From positions 96,001 through 160,000 of the forward strand of contig JBGPIA010000006.1 in assembly GCA_041484665.1 (NCBI GenBank): 64,000 nt of DNA. The letters are read 5' to 3'. The translations under genes were made by a program, and so were the position numbers. The notes under the pieces were generated by a model that was not told the origin of the DNA, made no database searches, and saw only the letters and a program-made list of their open reading frames with translations. Source of the stretch: Candidatus Krumholzibacteriia bacterium. Its GTDB lineage: Bacteria; Krumholzibacteriota; Krumholzibacteriia; JAJRXK01. This document shows, piece after piece, positions 1-64,000 of this stretch (its first letter is position 1; every line of letters begins with the position of its first letter).

Positions 1-422
1 GTCGCCCTTCGCCAGCGGCGTGGCCACGGGCAGCTCGCGGGTGAACCCGAACCGCGACCGCTCGCCCGGCCGGCTCGTCGCGTGGAGGCTGCCCCCATGA
101 GCTCGACCAGCTGCTTGCTGATGGCAAGCCCCAGGCCAGTCCCCCCGTAGCGCCGCCTGCTGGAGGAATCGGCCTGGGTACAGCGCGTGAAGAGCTTGCC
201 CAGCACGTCGGGCGCGATCCCGCTGCCGGTGTTTTCGGGGGCCCTGCTGTTGGTTCCGATCAGACTGGCCTACAGACCCAGCTCACGCCCCAGGCGGTCC
301 CGGAACGTGGTGTAGTCGTAGGTCGTCGTGATCGGGCCCACCATCGCCAGGGCAAGGAACGCCGGTACGCCGATGATCCAGCGCAGCCTCTGGCGGATGG
401 GCAGATCCAGGAACGGCGTCAT
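1..422 (-). pseudogene. Degraded sensor histidine kinase (N-terminal TM stub joined to a frameshifted HATPase_c remnant)
   Basis: 422..270 encodes MTPFLDLPIRQRLRWII... (ATGA overlap with the YfiR stop) and ends in TAG. About 240..1 on the minus strand reads [48 protein letters not shown], then continues in another frame as [22 protein letters not shown]. Confidence 0.8.
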
Positions 423-1123
423 GGCATGGCCGCTTTGTCGGTGGGCCGCTCGTCGTAGACGTCCGCGAGGCTGAGCAGCTGTGCGGCCAGCTGCAGCGAG
501 CGGCGCCGCCCTTCGCTGATGTTGATCTCGAACCGGATCCGGTTGCCGACCCAGAACAGCCGGATGACGCCGCCGGTGTGGGCGAACGTCTCCAGCTCGG
601 ACACCAGGAGCAGCGGCTTGCCCTTGAGCGTGCGCGTCAGCTCGGGCCAGCGCTCCGCCTCGGAGCGGCATACATAGACGACCTGGCAACCGTCACAGGA
701 CTCCCCGGGATGGATACGGCGCGTAGCGATCGTGTGGCCATGGGCGCTGCGCCCGTCGATCGATTCGAGCGCGGGAGCGCCGGGGTCGTCCCCGACCAGC
801 CCGATCGTGAGCGGAGCGCTGGGAGACAGGACCTCCACTGGCCAGTCGGTGAAGCGGGCGAAGTTGTACAGCAGCGCGGCCTTGAGCTGCGCTTCGCCGT
901 CTGCGGCGTGGCCGGCGCGGGGAACCAGGAGCCCTCCCAGACCCGTGAGCGCCCACGAGAACGCGGCGCCCCACAGCAGTCCCTGACAGGACGCGCGGCG
1001 GGCCGCCCGGCACCAGCGCAGACGGCGCCTCTCCTCGACCGTGGATCCCGTGCCGATGCGCAACGTAGATCTGCCTCGATAGGTGGGACCCGCGAGATGT
1101 ACACGATCCCGCGCAGTGGGCAT
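419..1123 (-). CDS. YfiR/HmsC (DUF4154) family periplasmic protein
   Basis: Motifs EAQLKAALLYNFARFTDWP, LLVSE...GGVIRL and RIRFEIN...LLSLA. The start codon is uncertain. Confidence 0.88.
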   Translation of the reverse strand: MPTARDRVHLAGPTYRGRSTLRIGTGSTVEERRRLRWCRAARRASCQGLLWGAAFSWALTGLGGLLVPRAGHAADGEAQLKAALLYNFARFTDWPVEVLSPSAPLTIGLVGDDPGAPALESIDGRSAHGHTIATRRIHPGESCDGCQVVYVCRSEAERWPELTRTLKGKPLLLVSELETFAHTGGVIRLFWVGNRIRFEINISEGRRRSLQLAAQLLSLADVYDERPTDKAAMP

Positions 1124-54798: not shown

Positions 54799-56703
54799 TC
54801 AGATGCCGTAACGCTCCAGCAACTGCGTCTCCACGTAACGCCGCTGCGCATCCGTAGTCGCGATGCCATAGATCTGCAGGTCAGCCATCTGCAGCGAGAT
54901 GTTGTCGATTGGCCATCCGTTCTTGGCACCGATGCCGATGCTCGCTCCCGTGAACACCTCGAGCGGCGCGGTGATCGACGCATCGTGAGCGCGTTGGAGT
55001 CCATTGATGTAGATCGTCAGCCCATCGGTCTGCGAGAAGCGAAACGTGAACACCTGGTACTGGTCGTAAACGGGCCGCACCGTCATTGCCGTGAGCGTAG
55101 CGCTGCCACCGTGGGACACCGACACCGTGTTGTCGTTCGGAAAGCCGATGCGCAGCACCTGGTTCTGGACGTCTCCATCGCCCCACAGCCAGTACATCTC
55201 GAGGTTGTTGCCCGGCTGGTCCAGGCGCTTGACCACCGCGAAGATGGTGTAGTCGGTGTCGCGCATCGGCGTTCCGGAGATGCGCATCGAGCCTGTCGAG
55301 TAGGTTGCATCGTACTGAAACGACACGATCGGTTGGCCGTTGAGCTGACCGGTCAGATAGAGACCCGCAACCTGCGGACCACCGAATGCTGGTGCGGCGT
55401 CGCGATCGGCATGCCCTAGCAAGTCAGCCCATCGAGTGGCGCCGCGCGCACCGGAGTAGCTGACCGTACTCACGCCGTGATCGGCGCGGTACCAGGCGAT
55501 CCCCCGCTTCAGCGACTGACCGATCGGTGTGCAGTCCACCACATCGTAACTCGTGGCGACCTTCACCTTCAGCTGCTTCTCGGGATGGGCCGCGGCATTC
55601 ACGGTGTAGCTGAGCGGCTGGCCCGTGGTGATCGTTCCGCCCAACCGGATGAACAGCTCGAGGTCCGCGAAATTACCCATCAACGCCGAGCCGGCGAGGT
55701 CCGCCCGACCGCCGATGGCGTAGCCACCGACTTCTACCGAGCTCAGCTCGCTGATGTACTTCACGTCTGCACCGATACCACCGCTGGCGATCGCTCCGCT
55801 GAAGCTCGCGTCGATGGACGCCTCGATCTCCTGTACCGAGTCTGTCGACTGGATCAGCAGGTAGAAGATCCGCCCGTAGGTGACGCTCGACACGTAGGCC
55901 GCCGGATTGCCCGGGCCCACGTACTGGCTCAACTGCACCGCGGTCACGCTCGGCGCGAAAAAGCTCGCCGGATCGGTCGGCTGCTCGAACGCGATGGTGT
56001 AGTAGCTCTGCGTCAGCTTGACCAGGAAACGGTTGTACGCGACGTCGCTGGCATAGCGGAAGCTGCCCTGGATGTCCGTCGTCAGGTTGTTGTAGTTGGC
56101 GCGGATCGCGACACCGAGCTGCTCGCGCGAGCTGATGCGCTGCATGGTATAGGTCGTGCGCGCTGGCAGATCGCCCGGGTTGGCGGCGATGATCTGGTTC
56201 ATCGCGTCGTAGACGCTGCCCAGGCTCACCACGTCGAGCTGGCGGCTGGCCGAGCTGGCGCCGTTGACCAGGGTGATCACGATCCGGCCATTGCCACGGG
56301 CGACCGGGATGGAGGTCGGAGTCGCGTGGTCGAGGGTGGAGCCCTGCAAGAGGTTTCCGGGGAAGATGATCTGGCTGTTGGGGTCGAATTGCGGGTAGTC
56401 GGAGTAGCCCTCGATCAGATCGACGGTGTGGCGCGTGCAGAAATACTGGTCCACGCCGCTGCCGCTGGTGAACTCCTCGGGCGGGGACTCGGTGTGGCTG
56501 GGCACCACGTCCTGAAACTCCCCGCCCGAATTGAGAACGGCGGTGAGCTCGCCAGGGGGGCCGCCGGTGCCGCCACCGCCCGGAGCAGTGGGGTCGTCAC
56601 CGCTGCAGGCGGCGAGGAAAAGGAGGGACAGCATCGCGACGCCGATCATCCCCCAATGGGTCGATCGCGCTGCCGTCTGCGAGAGGGAACGGGTGGTGTG
56701 CAT
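54799..56703 (-). CDS. Thiol-activated/cholesterol-dependent cytolysin-like (CDCL) lipoprotein with a C-terminal LamG/ConA-like domain
   Basis: Lipobox LAAC; IFPGNLLQG, QSYYTI, SFF...YVSSVTYGRIFYL, GQPLSYT; C-terminal AWYRAD..IYING..IYG. Confidence 0.85.
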   Translation of the reverse strand: MHTTRSLSQTAARSTHWGMIGVAMLSLLFLAACSGDDPTAPGGGGTGGPPGELTAVLNSGGEFQDVVPSHTESPPEEFTSGSGVDQYFCTRHTVDLIEGYSDYPQFDPNSQIIFPGNLLQGSTLDHATPTSIPVARGNGRIVITLVNGASSASRQLDVVSLGSVYDAMNQIIAANPGDLPARTTYTMQRISSREQLGVAIRANYNNLTTDIQGSFRYASDVAYNRFLVKLTQSYYTIAFEQPTDPASFFAPSVTAVQLSQYVGPGNPAAYVSSVTYGRIFYLLIQSTDSVQEIEASIDASFSGAIASGGIGADVKYISELSSVEVGGYAIGGRADLAGSALMGNFADLELFIRLGGTITTGQPLSYTVNAAAHPEKQLKVKVATSYDVVDCTPIGQSLKRGIAWYRADHGVSTVSYSGARGATRWADLLGHADRDAAPAFGGPQVAGLYLTGQLNGQPIVSFQYDATYSTGSMRISGTPMRDTDYTIFAVVKRLDQPGNNLEMYWLWGDGDVQNQVLRIGFPNDNTVSVSHGGSATLTAMTVRPVYDQYQVFTFRFSQTDGLTIYINGLQRAHDASITAPLEVFTGASIGIGAKNGWPIDNISLQMADLQIYGIATTDAQRRYVETQLLERYGI

Positions 56704-57059
56704 GGTTCGGTCTCCAGGTCGGAGGTTCAAGAGGCTTCGAATGGAGATGCGGATTCGCCGACCGGAACGCGCAACGACGGTCTCGCCGGCCCAGGGTCCG
56801 GGCCGCGCCGGTCACGGAAACTGTTCTGTCCCAACGTATTGCTGGAGGGTCAGTTCTCACGGCGATCGGCGCCGCGGCGCCTGGCCCGCGGGGCTCCACG
56901 GCGGCCTGCGGGATGACCAGAGGCGCAGCATCGCCGTTGGAGGGAGCGGGGTCGGCTGGACTACCGTGGACCCGAGTGTCGAGCGGTTGTTTCGTGCGAT
57001 GTGCTCTGCCGTGACCTCGACCTTGAGCCCTGGCGCTCCAACCAGTGGTGGCCTCCATC

Positions 57060-57614: not shown

Positions 57615-58707
57615 AGCGACGGTCTTTCCGCTGGACGACTTCCAGCCCGGCCGGACGCCGGGGGGCCGGGGGGGCGCCGATCAGATGCCGGTTGTCGGGA
57701 CCGAGTCCACGACCGTCAGAACTGGCACGGGTTGACGAGAGGAGTCATCGAGCGGCGGTCCTGGGTCACGAGGAGGGTCCATTCTCGTTCTTCCTCTCCA
57801 ACGTGGACCGATTGCCAGGCGTATTTGGGGAAGACTCTGTGGCTGATACACGAGGAGCGAAGCGGCCCAGAGGGAGAGGCAAGCGATTACGTAGTTCGGA
57901 GGCGGGGTCTCGCCAACGTGCCTCCACTCGCCCACCTTCGCGGTCGATCCCCGCGCAATCATCCCCGGGATCAGCCACGCATATTGAAGCCGATCATCTT
58001 ACCCAAGCCTTTCCGCCCGTAGCGTGATCTGGGTCTCGTTCCGGCCGAACAGGCGGCTCACTCCAACCGGCTCTATGATCTGTTGACCGCACCTCACGAC
58101 CAAGGAGAGGCTCAACAGAGTTGTCCTCACGGTTGGCGCAGGCATATGGCTCTACCGCATTTCGATCTCAGAACATCGAGGAAAGCTGGGCCGCGCACCA
58201 CATCGACGCCTGGACCCGCGTAGAATCGTATAGGATGAGGAACCTTCCAGGTCTCCGGCTTCGAATTCAAGATTGCGAATATGCCTTCGACAAGTTTTGC
58301 CATCGCCTTATCGTCGCGCGAGTTGGAAGTTATGCAGTCAGACCAAACGACCGCGTTGGCCTCCAAGCTGCAGAATAAGCGCACGCGGTAGGTCGAGCAC
58401 GGAATCCTTCCCCCCTCCCGTCTGATGGCGTGATCACCACGCTCTCGGGAAGCGCCCCTGCAAAGCCCGAACAGTCTCGACGTGAAGATGGCGCCGCAAT
58501 ACAGCGATTGCGGCGCTCTTTCCCGCGCTCAGGCTCGCCGCGAGAGGATGGTAGGGAGAGGGGTCCCCGTGCCCCGCGCGCCCGGGGTTACGGCTAAGGC
58601 CGGCCGGCGGTGAGCCGATAACATCGGAAGCGGCGGGCGCCGCGTTGTGCCCCAGCCAGGGGCCGCGAGAGCCGGGAGACCCTGCCCGCCGGCGAGGAGA
58701 TCGCACC

Positions 58708-59565
58708 GTGGGTGTCCTGTTGGGCGTGGCGGCCGCAATCTGCTGGGGGCTGGGTGACTTCCTCATCACGCACCTCACGCGCCGTATCGGGACGACCCGC
58801 GCCCTGATCTCCATCCAGGTCGCCAGCCTCCTAGCCTGGATGCTGCTGCTGCTCATCCGCCCTTCGCCCCCGGGCGGCACACCGCTCGTCTGGGCGATCG
58901 TTGTCGGCACGGCCATCTGCCACGTGCTTGGTCTGCTCTTCGTCTACCGCGCGTTTGAGATTGGTACACTTTCCATCGTATCCCCCATCTCGGCCGGCTT
59001 CGCGGTGGTCACGGCCGTGCTTTCGCTCGCGATGGGAGAGCGCCCCCCGGCGGCGGCCCTGGGTGGTGCGGGGCTCCTGATCGTGGGCGTCTTGCTGGCA
59101 ACGCGATCTGCGGGGGGGCCTTCGCAGCAGCGACCGAGTTGGACGGGAGTTCCCGAGGCCGTGCTCAGCGCGCTGGCCTTCGGCACGATGTTCTGGCTCT
59201 TCTATTTCTTCGTCGAGCCGAAGGTCGGTTACGCCTGGCCCTTGATCCTGCTGAAGACGATGGCGGTCAGCGGTTCGCTTCTGGCGTACGCTTCGAGGCG
59301 CCGCCGGGAGGAGGGGCAGAGATTCGCCCTCGGGCCAGGAGTGGTCTTGCTCGCCGTTGGGGCGGCAGCCGCCGACACCCTTGCGTGGCTCGCCTACATC
59401 CGGGGAATGGGCTCCACCTATGCCACGATCGTGACGGCGGTTGCTTCGCTGTTCAGCGTCGTCACAGTGCTCCTGGCTTGGAAGTTCCTCCGCGAGCGCC
59501 TCGCGGTCCACCAGTGGGCGGGCGTCGCCGCAATCCTGCTGGGGATTCTCCTGGTCAGCTCCTAG
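58708..59565 (+). CDS. DMT/EamA family transporter
   Basis: About 10 TM segments in two repeats; YRAFEIGTLSIVSPI and FLRERL..QWAG. Confidence 0.9.
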   Translation: MGVLLGVAAAICWGLGDFLITHLTRRIGTTRALISIQVASLLAWMLLLLIRPSPPGGTPLVWAIVVGTAICHVLGLLFVYRAFEIGTLSIVSPISAGFAVVTAVLSLAMGERPPAAALGGAGLLIVGVLLATRSAGGPSQQRPSWTGVPEAVLSALAFGTMFWLFYFFVEPKVGYAWPLILLKTMAVSGSLLAYASRRRREEGQRFALGPGVVLLAVGAAAADTLAWLAYIRGMGSTYATIVTAVASLFSVVTVLLAWKFLRERLAVHQWAGVAAILLGILLVSS

Positions 59566-59817
59566 CCCCGCCGCAAACCGGCAGTGATTGCCGTGGCTCA
59601 CCCGAACGCAGGCGCCCCTGGATCTCGCGGCATTCGGACCCGCCCGCTGCCGTGCCCCGCGCAACCGGCGGCAGGCCGCTCCGGGGGACTCCCGCCGGGC
59701 CTCAAGTTCTCCCTCGAGTTTGCCGATATGTCCTCCGACACGGGGCCCGCGCGCGGCGCCCGCGGCGCCCGCATGCGCCTGCACACCTGCATCGCCAGCG
59801 GAGGAGGGCTCCCCCTC

Positions 59818-60696
59818 ATGAACGGACGTCGACAGCTGATTCCGACGCTTCTCGCTTGCACCACGCTGCTCCTTGCCAGGGCCCCGGCTCTCGCCACCGA
59901 GATCCCCAGCGACCCGGTCATCCAGCCCGCACCGACCGCCGAGGTACCGGGCGACCCGACCGGGTCAGCTGCCGCAACACCCCGGGCCGCGGCTGCGCAA
60001 GCCACCTCAGCAGCCGGCGATCAGCCCGACAAGTTGGCGGGGGAGCGCCCAGCCCAGCCCGCAGCGTTGCATTGGCTCACCGTGGACTGGGACGCCTCGC
60101 TGGCGTCCAAGTACCTGTTCCAGGGGATCGACTACAGCGACGGCAAGCCAGTGCTCCAGCCGGAGGTCACGGTTTCCGTGAGATCCTTCTCGGCCATCCT
60201 GTGGGTCAATCACGACCTCCACACGCAGCAGCCCAACGAGGTGGATCTCTTCCTCCAGTACAACGTTGGAATCCCGCGGCTCGACCTCACGACGGGGTAT
60301 GCGCGCAATCACTACCCCCACCGCGAAGGGTGGGATCCCTCGCAGGAAGTCTACCTCGATCTGTCCTGCGACGCCCCACTGAGCCCCTCGCTAAGCGTCC
60401 ATTACGATTTCGACGCCGGGAAGGGGAGTTACTCCACGCTCTCCCTCGACCGCGAGGTTCCCAATCCTCTGCGAACCATGTCCGCCGGGCTGAAGCTCTA
60501 CTACCAGAACAACTACTACGAGGCCACGGGCTTCCCGTCCCTCGAGCTCCATATCGGCACCGAGCAGGCCATCGGCCCGTTCAAGATCACCCCCTCGATG
60601 TCGCGCTTCATCACCTGGCCGAACGGAGGCTTCCGAGACGAGAACGCGGTGTCGGCCACCTGGTATCTCGCGGTCAACGTCGCCCAGACCTTCTGA
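59818..60696 (+). CDS. Outer-membrane beta-barrel protein (TIGR02001/Gcw_chp-like)
   Basis: Signal peptide; ASKYLFQGIDY..PVLQP, EVDLFLQY; alternating beta-strand pattern; terminal Phe. Confidence 0.75.
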   Translation: MNGRRQLIPTLLACTTLLLARAPALATEIPSDPVIQPAPTAEVPGDPTGSAAATPRAAAAQATSAAGDQPDKLAGERPAQPAALHWLTVDWDASLASKYLFQGIDYSDGKPVLQPEVTVSVRSFSAILWVNHDLHTQQPNEVDLFLQYNVGIPRLDLTTGYARNHYPHREGWDPSQEVYLDLSCDAPLSPSLSVHYDFDAGKGSYSTLSLDREVPNPLRTMSAGLKLYYQNNYYEATGFPSLELHIGTEQAIGPFKITPSMSRFITWPNGGFRDENAVSATWYLAVNVAQTF

Positions 60697-60710
60697 GACG
60701 GGCGCGACTT

Positions 60711-62342
60711 ATGTCACCGGCCACCGATGAGAGGCCCCGGAAGACGCCCTACGTCGTGGCGACGGGGTTCACGACGGCGTGCCTCGGGGACGAGCGCACC
60801 CTGCGCGAGTTCGTAGTCGGCGACCACGTCATGAACAAGATCCTCGCCAAGGGGGAAAACGCTGTCCTCTATCTCATCAACGACAGCTACGATCCCCTCA
60901 CCCCTCGGCAGCTGCGGGTGGGCGTTAACAAGGACGAGAAGCTATTCGGGCAGTTCGAGCCCTACTGCGGACGCCCGATTGCCGAGATCCCCGACCCATT
61001 CGGCTGCCACCAGAGCTACGCGCAGCACTTCGCCCGCGCGTTGCTGCGGCGCCTGCACGCGCTGGACATCCACCCAGTACTGGTGAACTCCTACGAGTCC
61101 TACGAGAAGGGTCACTACGCCGGATTCGTATCCTCGACCATCGCGAGCTATCACAGGATTCAGGAGATGCTCGCAGCGCGATTTCCACGCTACACGATGC
61201 GCAACCTGTTCCGGCCGCAGTGCCCGAAGTGCCGGTGCATCGACGCGACCAACGTTCGCGCAGTCGAGGGTCTTGCGCTCCGCTTCGACTGCGATCGGTG
61301 CGGGACGACGACGAGCGAGGAGTTCCCTGCGGTCCGAGGCAAGCTCAGCTGGAAGCTCGACTGCGCGGCGCGATGGAACCTCTACGGCATCGACATGGAG
61401 ACCTTCTCGAAGTCCCACATCGCGGAACTGGGGACGTTCGAGATCTCCCGGTTCATGTCGCTCAACTTCTACGGGAGCAAGGTACCGACGATCGTGAAGT
61501 ACGGAAGCGTGAAGATCCAGCGCGAGCTTTCCTACAAACTCCTGGAGATTCTGCCCCCGAAGATCTTCAAGCGGCTGTTCGTCTCCAACCTGGGCCGCGA
61601 TCTCGAACTGAACCGTGACTCGGTCGAAAGCTTCTGCCACAAGTTTGCGGTCAGGCCAGGGCTAAGTTACGTGGACTACGTTCGCCGCGAGCTGCCCCAC
61701 CGTGCGCTACACGAGAACAGACCGGCCGGGCCAGACTCGGGATCCCAGGCGCTGCCGGACACGGCCATTTCCGACGATGCGCTGGTGTCCTTCGGCAACC
61801 AATTCTCCCGCTTCTACTACTCCAAGGACTATGGACTGCGCTTCCCCGACTCCGGGACAATCGCGTCGGCCAACCAGGCCGCCGCGCAGACGGCCCGGCG
61901 CTGGATCCAGCGCGCGCTGACGATCCGCGAGGGTGTCACCGACACGCGCAAGAACGCTCACGCTCTCATCAAGTCGTTCTTGCTCGCGGAGGACAGTGCG
62001 CCCCACGTGTTCCAGTACCTGCGGCGGCTGTTCGGCCAGACCGAGGGGCCCAGTATCACGACTCTGTTGTCTACCCTTCCGCGCGAGTACTTGACGACGG
62101 TCACGCTGCTGTTGGCTGGATACGACGGAATCGTCGAGTGCGCCGAGACCTGGAGCGCTGGGTCCCCGAACGGCAGCCCGATCGCGCCCGGGGCGGGGGC
62201 GGTGGCCGGGCTCCTGAGCTGCGTCCAGGAGCTGGCGGCATCAGGCGTCGATGCGGATCTCGCGTCGGCGACCGATACGGCGTCGAGTTCTCCCTCCAGC
62301 CCGACCCCCGCTCTGCCCGCCACCTCAGCTCCACTTCGGTAG
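60711..62342 (+). CDS. Class I lysyl-tRNA synthetase-like protein lacking HIGH and KMSKS motifs
   Basis: LysRS1 hallmarks: NDSYDPL, GRPIAEIPDPFGCHQSYAQHF, YEKGHY, CPKC/CDRC, GKLSWKLDCAARW, and C-terminal FQYLRRLFGQTEGPS. Confidence 0.85.
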   Translation: MSPATDERPRKTPYVVATGFTTACLGDERTLREFVVGDHVMNKILAKGENAVLYLINDSYDPLTPRQLRVGVNKDEKLFGQFEPYCGRPIAEIPDPFGCHQSYAQHFARALLRRLHALDIHPVLVNSYESYEKGHYAGFVSSTIASYHRIQEMLAARFPRYTMRNLFRPQCPKCRCIDATNVRAVEGLALRFDCDRCGTTTSEEFPAVRGKLSWKLDCAARWNLYGIDMETFSKSHIAELGTFEISRFMSLNFYGSKVPTIVKYGSVKIQRELSYKLLEILPPKIFKRLFVSNLGRDLELNRDSVESFCHKFAVRPGLSYVDYVRRELPHRALHENRPAGPDSGSQALPDTAISDDALVSFGNQFSRFYYSKDYGLRFPDSGTIASANQAAAQTARRWIQRALTIREGVTDTRKNAHALIKSFLLAEDSAPHVFQYLRRLFGQTEGPSITTLLSTLPREYLTTVTLLLAGYDGIVECAETWSAGSPNGSPIAPGAGAVAGLLSCVQELAASGVDADLASATDTASSSPSSPTPALPATSAPLR

Positions 62343-62352
62343 GAGGCGAATC

Positions 62353-63207
62353 ATGAAACGAGCGATGTTTCGATCCTTCCCGTTTGCGCTCGCGGCGCTC
62401 CTTGTGCCGCTCGCAACTCTCAGCATCCTAGCTGGATGCCGGACGCGCGGCGAGCCGGCGAGCCGCGCCGACAAGCATGACGACTCACTAGCCAGAGTCC
62501 AGCGCGCCGGCGTCCTTCTCTGGGGCGCGGACGTGGTGGGCGGCGTGCCCTACGTGTACGAAGACCCCCACCGGCCGGACACCTACATCGGGTTCGAGAT
62601 GACGATCGCGCAGGCGATCGCCGATGGGCTCGGAGTCCAGCTCAAGCTCGTCATCAAGGCGTGGGATACGCTGATCCCGGAACTCCAGCGTGGGTCTTTC
62701 GACTTAGCCATGAATGGGATCGAAGACACCGAGGACCGCGACAAGATCGTCCTGTTCTCAGAGCCCTACTTCGTTTACGCGCAGCAGCTGACGGTCCGCA
62801 AGAACACGTCGGGGATCGCGTCGCTCGACGACCTCAGGGACAAGCGGGTGGCCACGCTCTCGGGAACGGCCGCAGAGGACATTTTGCGGCAGACCGCCGG
62901 GGTCCAGATCGTCACTAACCCCGAGATCATCTACAGCTACCGCGACCTCGAGGAAGGGAAGGTGGAGGCCGTACTCCTGGACACCCCGATCGCGGCGGCC
63001 TACGGAGCCGCAAACCCCAAGCTCCAGAATGTCGGGCAGTCGTTCGGGGAGGGGCGCTACGTGATTGCGTTTCGCAAGGAGGACAAGAGTCTCCGGGACG
63101 CGATTGATCGGGTGCTCCAAAGTCTGAAGCAGAACGGCGAGCTCAAGCGGATCTACGAGCGCTGGGGAATCATGGACCAGCACCAGGCACAGATCGGGAT
63201 TCTCTGA
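62353..63207 (+). CDS. Polar amino-acid ABC transporter substrate-binding lipoprotein (SBP family 3)
   Basis: RBS AGGAGG; lipobox LAGC; WDTLIPELQRGSFD, FSEPY, GELKRIYERWGI. Confidence 0.92.
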   Translation: MKRAMFRSFPFALAALLVPLATLSILAGCRTRGEPASRADKHDDSLARVQRAGVLLWGADVVGGVPYVYEDPHRPDTYIGFEMTIAQAIADGLGVQLKLVIKAWDTLIPELQRGSFDLAMNGIEDTEDRDKIVLFSEPYFVYAQQLTVRKNTSGIASLDDLRDKRVATLSGTAAEDILRQTAGVQIVTNPEIIYSYRDLEEGKVEAVLLDTPIAAAYGAANPKLQNVGQSFGEGRYVIAFRKEDKSLRDAIDRVLQSLKQNGELKRIYERWGIMDQHQAQIGIL

Positions 63208-64000
63208 TGAGCGCTCGTGCAAACCTTGTGGGCGAGATGACGCGAGAGATGGGCGCGGCGTACGAGGTGATCTCGCCCGTCACGGGTACGACCCTCGATC
63301 GCGTGGCGCTGCTCGGCAAGGAGGAGATCGCCGCACTCCTCGCGCGACTGTCGGGACCGCCGAAACCATTGGCCCACAGGGAGGTCTTCGCGTTCCTCCA
63401 CCGTTTTCGGGAACAGCTCGTGGCCCACCGGGATGTCTTACTCGAGCGAACGGTCTTCGAGACCGGCTTCACCGGCAGGGATTGCTCGGAAATGGTCGAC
63501 GGGGCCGTCGAATTCTTGAAGGACTTCGAAACCTACGCCCATGATCAGTCATCCCGGAGCCAGGTCATCCGGCACTCGTACTCCACCCTGAGCCAGCGGG
63601 ACATGCGGATCACCGACCGGCCCTTCCGCTGTGTGGCCGCGGTCGTTCCCCAGAACGCCTCGCTCACGCTGGGCATCACGATCATCGCGTCGGCACTCTA
63701 TGCAGGGTCGCGAATCGTCCTGCGCCCCTCCTTGCAGTGTGCTTCTACCGGCGCCCTGCTGGCGGACATCGTGCGCGAGAGCGATCCACCCTGGGCATTC
63801 GTCGAGATCGTGAACAGCCTAGCCTCAGACTTCCTGGATGCCTGCTTGGCATCGGACTCAGTAGATCTGATCCACTACATCGGGAGCAACCAGTACGCCC
63901 TCCCGGTGTTCCAGCAAGCCTTTGCGGCCGGAAAGATCTGCCTGCTCGACGGTCAGGGGAACGGCCTGCTCTACCTCGACCGCACGTTCCCCCAGGAAAC
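63207..64000 (+). CDS. Divergent aldehyde-dehydrogenase-superfamily protein (partial; runs off the window, not in the ORF track)
   Basis: ATG overlaps the SBP stop (TGATG). Translation contains YEVISPVTG, ETG, PQNAS, AGSRIVLRPS, HYIGS and DGQGNG. Confidence 0.8.
   Translation, partial: MSARANLVGEMTREMGAAYEVISPVTGTTLDRVALLGKEEIAALLARLSGPPKPLAHREVFAFLHRFREQLVAHRDVLLERTVFETGFTGRDCSEMVDGAVEFLKDFETYAHDQSSRSQVIRHSYSTLSQRDMRITDRPFRCVAAVVPQNASLTLGITIIASALYAGSRIVLRPSLQCASTGALLADIVRESDPPWAFVEIVNSLASDFLDACLASDSVDLIHYIGSNQYALPVFQQAFAAGKICLLDGQGNGLLYLDRTFPQE

Follow-up and report, generated by a model that had tools for sequence, protein, structure and literature searches.

What becomes of a lysyl-tRNA synthetase once the parts with which it would handle ATP have disappeared? 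The question is raised by a gene within a tightly packed run on the forward strand of the window (the whole stretch of 64,000 nucleotides that was analysed), whose product, P0001, had been described in a sequence-only reading as a paralogue of class I lysyl-tRNA synthetase (LysRS1), colinear with that enzyme throughout. This was confirmed, and P0001 is a full-length homologue of the archaeal-type enzyme. The Pfam domain tRNA-synt_1f (PF01921) is matched with 148.4 bits against a gathering cut-off of 27, the match covering only residues 10-271 on profile positions 20-279 of 360, and the top PDB sequence match is the LysRS1 of P. horikoshii (1irx_A, E 3e-20). The AF2 model (pLDDT 83.9) was superposed by VIA-align on the same chain, residues 9..469 on 17..523, with a Z score of 30.1 and 434 aligned residues, and contains the full LysRS1 architecture, namely a Rossmann fold with a zinc insertion, an SC fold and a helical C-terminal domain. 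The score for the NCBIfam equivalog TIGR00467 (lysS_arch), 127.2 bits, lies below its cut-off of 147.55, and a look-up in the ESM Atlas returned clusters named by PF01921 only. Structural matches listed by Foldseek and VIA comprise LysRS1, BshC, CysRS, GluRS, MshC, ArgRS and MetRS; glutamyl-tRNA reductase (GluTR) and the cyclodipeptide synthases (CDPSs) are absent among these listed matches, an absence that does not amount to exclusion.

The C-terminal helical domain is modelled with a pLDDT of mostly 82-95 and is conserved as a fold, since the whole chain superposes on 1irx_A. Retention of the anticodon-binding domain, as had been claimed earlier, therefore stands for the fold and for the terminal G446-P447 (with GPS replacing GPR), but not for the sequence, which is only about 12% identical to that of canonical LysRS1 (0.119). 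The tail that follows has block-mean pLDDT values of 30-66, falling below 50 in residues 476-493 and 512-543, and is unaligned among homologues. Contigs from four other sediment metagenome runs cover positions 60711-62342 with the same letters throughout and 0 indels, so that an assembly error was rejected as the origin of this sequence.

Table 1. Features of the paralogue gene and of the genes around it. Positions are those of the window unless a locus is named.
Feature	Position	Strand	Basis
EamA-family (DMT) membrane transporter, first gene of the forward run	58645..59565	+	Pfam EamA, 71.7 bits
Outer-membrane protein, Gcw_chp/TorF-family putative porin	59584..60696	+	PF09694, TIGR02001
Class I LysRS paralogue P0001, 543 aa	60711..62342	+	Stop-free translation of the ORF
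Former HIGH site, residues 17-34, ATGFTTACLGDERTLREF	60759..60812	+	HMMER alignment to 1irx_A
Two CxxC zinc knuckles (C171, C174, C194, C197)	61221..61301	+	Alignment
LysRS1 core motif, residues 210-237, GKLSWKLDCAARWN...ETFSKSH	61338..61421	+	Alignments
Site of the deleted KMSKS loop, residues 262-284, VKYGSVKIQRELSYKLLEILPPK	61494..61562	+	119-sequence alignment
C-terminal helical domain with the LysRS1/GluRS anticodon-binding fold, residues 352-470, ending in GQTEGPSITTLL	61764..62120	+	
Low-complexity, non-conserved tail, residues 476-543	62136..62339	+	pLDDT and homologue alignment
Lipoprotein-type periplasmic binding protein, polar amino-acid family (SBP_bac_3)	62353..63207	+	Pfam, 113.5 bits
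Dedicated ALDH-like enzyme, 483 aa	63207..64000, continuing past the window to L007:10658 (G000:C6:160658)	+	Pfam Aldedh
HAMP histidine kinase	L007:10673-12589, beyond the window		
Receiver-GAF-HisKA-HATPase protein	L007:12600-14420, beyond the window		

Loss of the HIGH motif and deletion of the KMSKS loop had both been read from the sequence, and both were confirmed by alignment. In the HMMER alignment to 1IRX, residues H35-V36-G37-N38 are faced by D27-E28-R29-T30 of P0001, so that the HIGH signature (HxGN/H) is missing. Among 65 canonical LysRS1 sequences the HIGH His is found in 95% and the Gly in 97%, and in their place Asp and Arg occur in 100% of paralogue clades G1 and G2. The KMSKS loop (xMSxSxG, between a Tyr and 'LE..PP') was assessed by aligning 119 full-length sequences with MAFFT (54 paralogues and 65 canonical LysRS1); it is present in the 65 canonical rows and replaced by a gap in all 54 paralogue rows, where P0001 reads 'VKYGSVKI--QR--ELSY--KLLEILPPK'. 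A further loss, absent from the list made in the sequence-only reading, concerns the canonical 'GKDH', which is 'SKSH' in P0001: its Asp, present in 82% of canonical LysRS1, has become Ser here and is Ala, Ser or Asn in the paralogue clades. These proteins are thus shown to form a LysRS paralogue family devoid of all three recognisable ATP-site signatures, namely HIGH, the KMSKS loop and the GKDH Asp.

The former HIGH site has not drifted. Within the 24 sequences of clade G1, to which P0001 belongs and whose overall identity is 44-58%, 12 of the 18 residues near this site are invariant (A17, T18, G19, T21, G26, D27, E28, R29, L31, R32, E33 and F34), and the new G-D-E-R-x-L-R-E-F segment presumably lines what used to be the ATP site. 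The residues that had been listed as retained are indeed in place: G19, T21 and E33 (facing G27, T29 and E41 of 1IRX), W214, H236, Y264 and the four zinc cysteines, the latter being invariant in the G1 alignment, at least 92% conserved in all three paralogue clades and 92-97% in canonical LysRS1. The core motif also keeps K211, R221, W222, E230 and K234, its canonical W218 being Cys. Out of 52 columns conserved at 80% or more in canonical LysRS1, 29 are kept in G1, among them G19, D58, D61, W214, R221, W222, E230, H236, Y264 and the four Cys. Some of these are positions that published work on LysRS1 and other class I enzymes leads us to take as the lysine pocket, and the role of the GKDH Asp was assumed on the same footing; a literature search for a paper on LysRS1 pocket residues returned nothing relevant. 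We infer that the amino-acid pocket of clade G1 still accepts lysine or a lysyl group. The claim of a preserved lysine pocket is accordingly supported for G1, where the assumed positions are invariant. In the more distant clades G2 and G3 a Tyr takes the place of the pocket His and the Tyr before the loop is variable, so that lysine may be the pocket ligand in clade G1 only.

The same motif losses are shared by no fewer than 54 full-length relatives, which fall into three clades (G1, G2 and G3), so that the lineage-specific decay against which the collection of homologues had been advised does not apply. In a tree computed without the motif columns, paralogues and canonical LysRS1 are split on a single branch with a support of 100. 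The catalytic domain retains 55% mean pairwise identity across phyla, and the family ranges over at least six bacterial phyla and archaeal-type contigs. Clade G3 loci were drawn from a metagenome scan with a 3-sequence alignment, and only two of the six loci recovered were true G3. Taken as a whole, the family is shown to be a conserved, single-origin offshoot of class I LysRS that has kept the LysRS1 fold from end to end. Decay to a pseudogene was rejected on account of the losses common to the relatives, the invariant HIGH-site segment and the single branch. As had been anticipated, the genome carries a separate housekeeping enzyme, a class II lysS scoring 573 bits, above cut-off (G000:C2:348369-349811), and class II lysS genes above cut-off were likewise found in five of five other paralogue-host genomes; in the host and in each of these five the paralogue is the sole strong PF01921 match. 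These observations support the view that P0001 is a paralogue and not the housekeeping LysRS of the cell.

Two genes downstream of the paralogue lies an aldehyde dehydrogenase-like (ALDH-like) gene whose product matches Pfam Aldedh (PF00171) over its full length with 198.3 bits. No NCBIfam equivalog is reached (best 118.9 bits against a cut-off of 650), which leaves it outside any named, characterised ALDH subfamily; its nearest sequence relatives are lactaldehyde, phosphonoacetaldehyde and succinate-semialdehyde dehydrogenases, and the partners in clade G3 have an additional weak match to the LuxC acyl-CoA reductase. The catalytic Cys (C282 here) occurs in all 24 paralogue-associated enzymes, the oxyanion-hole Asn is present, and in MAFFT and BLASTP comparisons the general-base position is occupied by Asp in 22/22 G1/G2 partners and by Glu in 2/2 G3 partners, so that a suspected loss of the general-base Glu was discarded. 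Judged by these residues, the partner looks catalytic. Derived PWGG and FGPxxW motifs are found in 24/24 associated enzymes and in none of 11 generic ALDHs, from which a DGxGNG motif seen in the partner is also absent.

The association between the two genes is strict. The ALDH-like gene falls inside the fetched locus at 39 of 48 paralogue genome loci, and among the exceptions all five genomes checked carry one copy elsewhere (448-696 bits). A profile of the subfamily scores 709.8 bits in the host genome, and in 40 relatives without the paralogue the subfamily was not found, the best profile score there being 162 bits; in the genomes examined it occurs only alongside the paralogue. In clade G3, which is of archaeal type, the ALDH-like gene is the next gene to the paralogue in both loci, with no signalling genes there. 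The paralogue family is thus shown to be coupled strictly to one dedicated ALDH-like subfamily. A complex prediction for paralogue residues 1-475 with the ALDH-like enzyme, each with its own alignment, gave a score of 0.00, which is no answer and speaks neither for nor against binding.

The remaining neighbours are those of a transport and signalling cassette, in the order EamA transporter, porin, paralogue, amino-acid-type binding protein, ALDH-like enzyme, sensor kinase and response regulator. In the window its genes are closely spaced or overlapping: the porin gene ends 14 nt before the paralogue, the AGGAGG ribosome site of the binding-protein gene overlaps the paralogue stop codon, and the stop of the binding-protein gene shares nucleotides with the start of the ALDH-like gene. 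Scans of the forward strand for promoters and terminators gave nothing above shuffled expectation. The synteny is kept across Nitrospirota, Eisenbacteria and Gammaproteobacteria. By tblastn, EamA relatives were found in 20 of 48 related loci; the binding protein has counterparts of 62-71% identity in 19 of 48, directly downstream every time, and its nearest neighbours in the PDB are AncQR, an Arg-binding protein and GlnH. Relatives of the putative porin, itself assigned by scores under the cut-off (PF09694 22.9 bits, TIGR02001 22 bits), stand directly upstream in 11 of 48, and at type B loci an unrelated-looking outer-membrane-type protein with a signal peptide (C6) adjoins the paralogue, in 15 cases. 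In clade G1 the output of the receiver-GAF protein varies, from HisKA-HATPase here to GGDEF-EAL in L009, and in clade G2 the paralogue comes after a membrane GGDEF-HD-GYP protein. Type B loci also carry a GntF-like amine N-methyltransferase (94.7 bits, cut-off 60) together with EamA, and at one locus (L056) a zinc alcohol dehydrogenase follows; dehydrogenase, methyltransferase and EamA transporter would all be in keeping with a product that is a small amine or aldehyde. A tRNA scan of the window and 50 loci yielded a single tRNA-Lys (L039) plus three calls located within coding regions or next to them, and thus no dedicated tRNA is conserved near the paralogue.

Because the ATP-binding parts are gone, an ALDH-like enzyme is the partner and the operon is one of signalling, P0001 probably has a job outside protein synthesis, and probably one that is previously undescribed. 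A literature search, to which most subscription papers were out of reach, found no described family of LysRS-I paralogues, in line with the earlier statement that none was known, and no LysRS-I paralogue was found in the passages of the AARS Online paper that were covered. The coupling with the ALDH-like enzyme and the signalling cassette, which the sequence-only reading had missed, form the strongest clue, and they shift the interpretation from a lysyl transferase with an unknown acceptor to a hand-over, in either direction, between the paralogue and a Cys-dependent NAD(P) enzyme.

The preferred explanation, tentatively suggested as a possibility rather than a probability, is that the Cys of the ALDH-like enzyme receives from the paralogue a lysyl group whose probable source is Lys-tRNA, giving rise to a lysine-derived aldehyde or signal. 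Since activation of lysine by the paralogue itself is proposed to be impossible, it would take lysine that has already been activated elsewhere, the most likely donor being Lys-tRNA(Lys) charged by the class II LysRS of the host; such a supplier exists in this genome and in the five others. Lys-tRNA(Lys) would be gripped through the retained tRNA-synthetase architecture and its lysyl ester presented to the catalytic cysteine of the partner, where the lysyl-thioester could be reduced by NAD(P)H to a lysine aldehyde, following the logic of GluTR and LuxC. This aldehyde might then be cyclised or further processed. With the genes of the host genome, the product would leave the cell through the EamA transporter and the porin and be sensed by the adjacent amino-acid-type binding protein together with the HAMP kinase and the receiver-GAF-kinase protein, in which case the seven genes would represent a self-contained, horizontally moving cassette for making and sensing a signal. 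Its fullest version, in which paralogue and ALDH-like enzyme constitute a two-protein aminoacyl-tRNA reductase whose product, or a cyclised or methylated derivative, is the signal of a mobile make, export and sense cassette with kinase or c-di-GMP outputs in bacteria, we consider unlikely. Against the use of tRNA are the low identity of the C-terminal domain (about 12%) and the lack of a conserved tRNA gene in 50 loci.

The main rival to this hand-over of a lysyl group, itself doubtful, is a ligand-sensing pseudoenzyme, which would bind lysine, a lysine-like metabolite or tRNA(Lys), charged or uncharged, and inform the kinase or c-di-GMP proteins, the ligand being produced or removed by the ALDH-like enzyme. 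A protein without an ATP site yet with a conserved pocket would suit such a role, as would the position of the G1 paralogue amid the binding protein, the HAMP kinase and a receiver-GAF protein of variable output, and that of the G2 paralogue behind its GGDEF-HD-GYP protein. Among the 120 homologues listed, one (P0022) has an EAL domain at its C-terminus, as is usual where a sensor is joined to its output; it is the only fusion seen, and no longer fused forms (952-2715 aa) were found at E <= 1e-20, which is weak evidence. A signalling role is hence suggested by the c-di-GMP and kinase neighbours and the EAL fusion, and this counts against the hand-over reading. On the other hand, the G3 pair stands without signalling genes in two of two loci, implying that the conserved core is metabolic; the invariant charged D-E-R that replaces HIGH resembles a working site more than a filled-in cavity; and the mere sensing of lysine has no obvious need for a C-terminal domain of about 120 residues and zinc knuckles.

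An oxidising partner, which we also hold to be doubtful, would run the chemistry in the opposite direction. The ALDH-like enzyme would convert an amino-aldehyde to a thioester for which the paralogue gives the acceptor, either bound lysine (with an N-acyl-lysine-type product) or a tRNA 3' end; alternatively, the paralogue would be the Lys-tRNA-dependent lysyl transferase proposed in the sequence-only reading, acting onto a small molecule made or consumed by the ALDH-like enzyme. Since the partner is nearest in sequence to hydrolytic, oxidising ALDHs and retains both the Cys and an acidic residue at the base position, turning an aldehyde into an acid would come to it no less naturally than the reduction. 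The adjacent binding protein, of an alpha-amino-acid-binding family, suits a lysine modified on its side chain, and the strict co-occurrence of the two genes speaks for this reading as much as for the hand-over. According to the abstract of one published account (PMC6331615), a single natural-product pathway can employ both an aaRS-like enzyme and an aldehyde dehydrogenase. However, the conserved core includes no identifiable acceptor or aldehyde source, and the divergent C-terminal domain and lack of a conserved tRNA gene weigh on this explanation as they do on the hand-over of a lysyl group, from which sequence data cannot tell it apart. Finally, P0001 might still function as a lysyl-tRNA synthetase whose ATP site is unorthodox, or be a pseudogene in decay. 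This would account for the Pfam LysRS1 match and the full-length fold, but is highly improbable in view of HIGH, KMSKS and the GKDH Asp missing in 54/54 members examined, the score below the TIGR00467 cut-off, the class II LysRS in the genome, the strong purifying conservation (55% identity in the catalytic domain) with a single origin, and a reading frame found unbroken in each of four independent metagenome assemblies.

Time and again, paralogues of tRNA synthetases have proved to be new enzymes, for example in tRNA and EF-P modification and in mycothiol and cyclodipeptide synthesis; we know of none that derives from class I LysRS. What is new here is the coupling of a LysRS paralogue to a dedicated ALDH-like subfamily, which provides a clear and testable partner. 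If Lys-tRNA is used, the charged-tRNA pool of translation would be linked in a new way to the synthesis of small molecules or signals; a two-protein aminoacyl-tRNA reductase, if real, would be built from parts entirely unlike those of GluTR; and a sensor would add a new kind of input domain to kinase and c-di-GMP signalling. With either reading, database entries now called 'lysine--tRNA ligase' or 'hypothetical' would have to be renamed in their thousands.

In comparison with known systems, the paralogue resembles LysRS1 (1IRX, PF01921, TIGR00467) in its whole-chain fold, the zinc knuckles, the GKLxW(K/R)xD..RW core and the C-terminal GP, and differs from it in the absence of HIGH, the KMSKS loop and the GKDH Asp, in the Cys at W218, in its separate clade, in its coexistence with a class II LysRS and in being linked to an ALDH-like gene instead of translation genes. 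Its partner shares with the ALDH superfamily (PF00171) the catalytic Cys, the oxyanion Asn and the acidic base position, and is set apart by PWGG, FGPxxW and DGxGNG and by having no NCBIfam equivalog. The reuse of a synthetase scaffold outside translation is common to GluQRS/YadB, EpmA/PoxA, HisZ, MshC and BshC, all of which are aaRS paralogues in non-translational roles, and BshC (4wbd, Z 19.6) and MshC (3c8z, Z 15.6) are among the structural matches of P0001; activation in GluQRS, EpmA and MshC still depends on ATP, and HisZ serves as a regulatory subunit. To our knowledge, none of these is derived from LysRS1 or paired with an ALDH. In their mode of action, GluTR, the CDPSs and SbzA may be the closest analogues of the proposed mechanism, as they use pre-charged aa-tRNA, the aminoacyl ester being the donor without any ATP step. 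P0001 does not appear to be a member of these families. CDPSs are small single-domain proteins resembling TyrRS and TrpRS, unlike the paralogue. In GluTR, the only enzyme that we know to reduce a charged tRNA to an amino-aldehyde, NADPH reduces a cysteine thioester, and this enzyme, of unrelated fold, possesses its own Cys and NADPH domain, whereas here the same tasks would be divided between two separate proteins.

Genome searches show that P0001, the class I lysyl-tRNA synthetase (LysRS1) paralogue, is not the LysRS of its cell and that its family is non-translational. The host genome (5.45 Mb, 93.65% complete) carries the separate lysS that the sequence-only reading had proposed looking for, a class II gene scoring 573 bits and over its cut-off, and P0001 is its only real PF01921 match; likewise, all five other host genomes checked possess a class II lysS and have the paralogue as sole real match to this profile. 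P0001 (543 aa) matches Pfam tRNA-synt_1f with 148 bits, covering profile positions 20-279 of 360 only, and does not reach the NCBIfam lysS_arch equivalog (127.2 bits vs a cut-off of 147.55). Among solved structures, P. horikoshii LysRS1 (1irx_A, E 3e-20) is closest to it in sequence. An AlphaFold2 model from 24 input homologues is confident (pLDDT 83.9, pTM 0.77), apart from disorder at residues 1-5 and 337-349 and in the tail that begins at 476, and superposes on 1irx_A along the whole chain (Foldseek E 2.9e-21; VIA-align of 9..469 on 17..523, Z 30.1, 434 residues aligned), followed in the VIA-align ranking by BshC (Z 19.6) and then CysRS, GluRS and MshC (Z about 15-17). Profile match and superposition bear out the colinearity with LysRS1 suggested earlier, and the proposed replacement of HIGH is equally evident, as D27-E28-R29-T30 lie opposite the tetrad H35-V36-G37-N38 in the alignment to 1irx_A, where G19, T21 and E33 lie opposite G27, T29 and E41. 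These unusual motifs are not assembly errors, because the gene recurs with 0 substitutions and 0 indels on contigs from four further sediment metagenome runs.

A word-indexed search with P0001 returned 162 matches, the best 120 of which have 45-64% identity and are mostly unnamed or 'hypothetical', and an exhaustive representative search returned 546 at E <= 1e-3, including 53 at E <= 1e-30. The alignment comprised 119 full-length sequences (440-600 aa, shorter and longer rows excluded), namely P0001, every fourth of 118 close matches and, from P0121 on, the complete set of 88 full-length representatives. In 65 rows the motifs are canonical (HxGN/H, xMSxSxG, GKDH), whereas HIGH, the KMSKS loop and the GKDH Asp are all missing from the other 54; the loop deletion is thus confirmed in every aligned paralogue, and the homologues sharing the motif loss that the sequence-only reading had asked for do exist. 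The Asp, which in the class I GxDH motif contacts the ATP ribose, is a third ATP-site loss besides HIGH and KMSKS. Three clades were distinguished: G1 (34 rows, GDER[TS]LREF, including P0001), G2 (12 rows, GDERNLRE[FY]) and G3 (8 rows, low G+C, ADNQLREF). In an unrooted FastTree computed after dropping both motif regions, one branch separates all canonical rows from the paralogue rows (support 100; G1 99, G1+G2 99), a topology consistent with a single origin of the paralogue family. Decay of P0001 was rejected, since the same losses are shared by all 54 rows in three clades. The family is shown to have had its ATP site systematically removed and to be under purifying selection.

Among the 52 canonical columns conserved at >= 80%, G1 retains 29, G2 22 and G3 21. 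Losses in G1 comprise both HIGH positions, the preceding PSG, R64, W218 (an invariant Cys instead), the G233 and D235 of the GKDH motif and, in the loop, Ser and Gly; retained are G19, D58, D61, the PxxxxPxP stretch, H106, F107, Y131, K211, L212, W214, R221, W222, E230, K234, H236, Y264, P283, G446-P447 and the four zinc Cys, in agreement with the two zinc knuckles described earlier. The lysine pocket, which we take to be lined by G27, T29, E41, W218, H240 and Y268 of 1IRX, had been described as kept; this is confined to G1, because in G2 and G3 the H236 position is Tyr and the Y264 position is variable. Retention of the anticodon-binding domain likewise holds in part, as its fold superposes on 1irx_A but the C-terminal domain is only about 12% identical in sequence to canonical enzymes. 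Mean pairwise identity within G1 is 34% in this domain and 55% in the catalytic domain, a ratio near that of canonical enzymes (26% and 37%). No description of a LysRS-I paralogue was found in a full-text literature search reaching mostly outside subscription journals, or in passages of the AARS Online paper, in line with the earlier remark that no described family matches P0001.

The paralogue has been shown to be strictly coupled to a dedicated Cys-type aldehyde-dehydrogenase-like (ALDH-like) enzyme. When the window neighbours were compared by tblastn with 48 related loci, the ALDH-like gene was matched in 39, EamA in 20, the binding protein in 19, the HAMP kinase in 18, the receiver-GAF protein in 17 and the porin in 11. 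The nine loci without an ALDH-like gene include several short contigs and a doubtful family member (L055), and each of the five genomes searched from these nine (5/5) carries one elsewhere (448-696 bits). The catalytic Cys and an acidic residue at the position of the general base (Asp in 22 from G1/G2, Glu in 2 from G3) are kept in 24/24 associated ALDH-likes, all of which possess the PWGG and FGPxxW motifs, vs 0/11 correctly framed generic ALDHs (20 regions fetched, 9 with wrong-frame ORFs left uncounted). ORF clustering revealed two gene orders: type A (G1), with (EamA) porin, paralogue, binding protein, ALDH-like, HAMP kinase and receiver-GAF-output; and type B (G2), in which one strand carries ALDH-like, EamA and a GntF-like N-methyltransferase, facing on the opposite strand a GGDEF-HD-GYP membrane protein, the paralogue and a protein of outer-membrane type. 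In 11 type B loci, EamA and the signalling gene flank a methyltransferase of the NNMT/PNMT/TEMT family, that of L036 scoring 94.7 bits with the guanitoxin GntF N-methyltransferase model (cut-off 60). A metagenome scan with G3 sequences yielded two true G3 loci, L056 and L057, which appear archaeal from the genes around them (SepRS-like, wyosine synthesis, LysRS1); both have an ALDH directly after the paralogue (PF00171 220-242 bits, weak LuxC match) and neither has a signalling gene, and an alcohol dehydrogenase is adjacent in G3. Directly upstream of the paralogue, both loci encode a conserved 273-300 aa protein (38% identity between the two loci). Its GS...DxD-like stretch and its weak match to NTP_transf_2 (E 0.0048, below cut-off) make it a candidate third partner, of nucleotidyltransferase fold, in G3. 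The canonical LysRS1 gene on L056 appears split, one ORF having the HIGH region ('HIGR') and the other beginning at profile position 94; possible causes are a frameshift, a misassembly or a gene that is truly split. From the co-occurrence and the loci without signalling genes, the conserved core is therefore the paralogue/ALDH-like pair, and signalling genes are clade-specific additions.

Coordinates of the features discussed (window positions unless a fetched locus is named)
Feature	Position	Strand	Remark
LysRS1 paralogue (P0001)	60711-62342	+
ALDH-like gene	from 63207	+	runs past window end
Thiol_cytolysin ORF	54799-56811 (L007:799-2811)	-	670 aa
Kinase-TPR gene	L007:17104-19776	+	890 aa; past window end
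Methyltransferase, type B	L036:3774-4577	-
G3 upstream protein	L056:809-1711	+
G3 upstream protein	L057:7091-7912	+
Apparently split LysRS1	L056:6510-8116	-
HIGH-region ORF	L056:7937-8116		59 aa
Second ORF	L056:6510-7853		447 aa

In the window, 14 nt separate the end of the porin gene from the paralogue. The paralogue's stop codon, TAG, overlaps AGGAGG, the ribosome site of the binding-protein gene, whose own stop overlaps the ALDH-like start; a + strand scan, itself weak evidence, found no terminator-like site from EamA to the end of the receiver-GAF-kinase gene. The binding protein, the most conserved of the cassette (62-71% identity across phyla), belongs to the polar amino-acid family, with AncQR, Arg-binding and Gln-binding proteins as nearest solved chains. 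The paralogue has a patchy distribution that resembles horizontal spread: the 48 loci span Nitrospirota, Eisenbacteria, Gammaproteobacteria, Abditibacteriota, Armatimonadota and Chloroflexales, and a search of 40 relatives of the host genome, 9 from its family and 31 from its class, found no paralogue at E <= 1e-30. With the profile of the ALDH-like subfamily the host reaches 709.8 bits and these relatives at best 162. The lower G+C of positions 60001-64000 (0.63-0.64; rest of the window 0.64-0.75), together with cassette absence from the 40 relatives, fits horizontal acquisition. Elsewhere in L007, the window's own locus, an ORF with a Thiol_cytolysin match (100.6 bits, residues 130-406) and a C-terminal Laminin_G_3 domain encodes a cholesterol-dependent-cytolysin-like protein in this sediment bacterium, and some 2.7 kb past the downstream end of the cassette lies a gene for a Ser/Thr protein kinase to which a long TPR array is fused.

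We infer that P0001 would bind lysine or a lysyl group and that paralogue and ALDH-like enzyme act in one pathway. A sensor role for the paralogue fits the signalling gene context and a single fusion, P0022 (763 aa), one of the 120 matches listed, in which the paralogue carries a C-terminal EAL (c-di-GMP phosphodiesterase) domain. A tentative proposal, by analogy, is that Lys-tRNA from the class II enzyme would serve as pre-activated lysine source, putatively held by the paralogue, which would pass the lysyl group on to the cysteine of the ALDH-like enzyme, where it would be reduced with NAD(P)H to an amino-aldehyde. The small amine product might be further processed by the alcohol dehydrogenase (G3) or the amine methyltransferase (G2), and exported and sensed through EamA (G2) or, in G1, through the porin, the binding protein and the two-component system. 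The nearest sequence relatives of the ALDH-like partner are oxidising ALDHs, which counts against this reductive use of Lys-tRNA, as does the fit of a sensor role noted above. Glutamyl-tRNA reductase and LuxC, both established biochemistry, would provide the parallel for the reduction proposed here.
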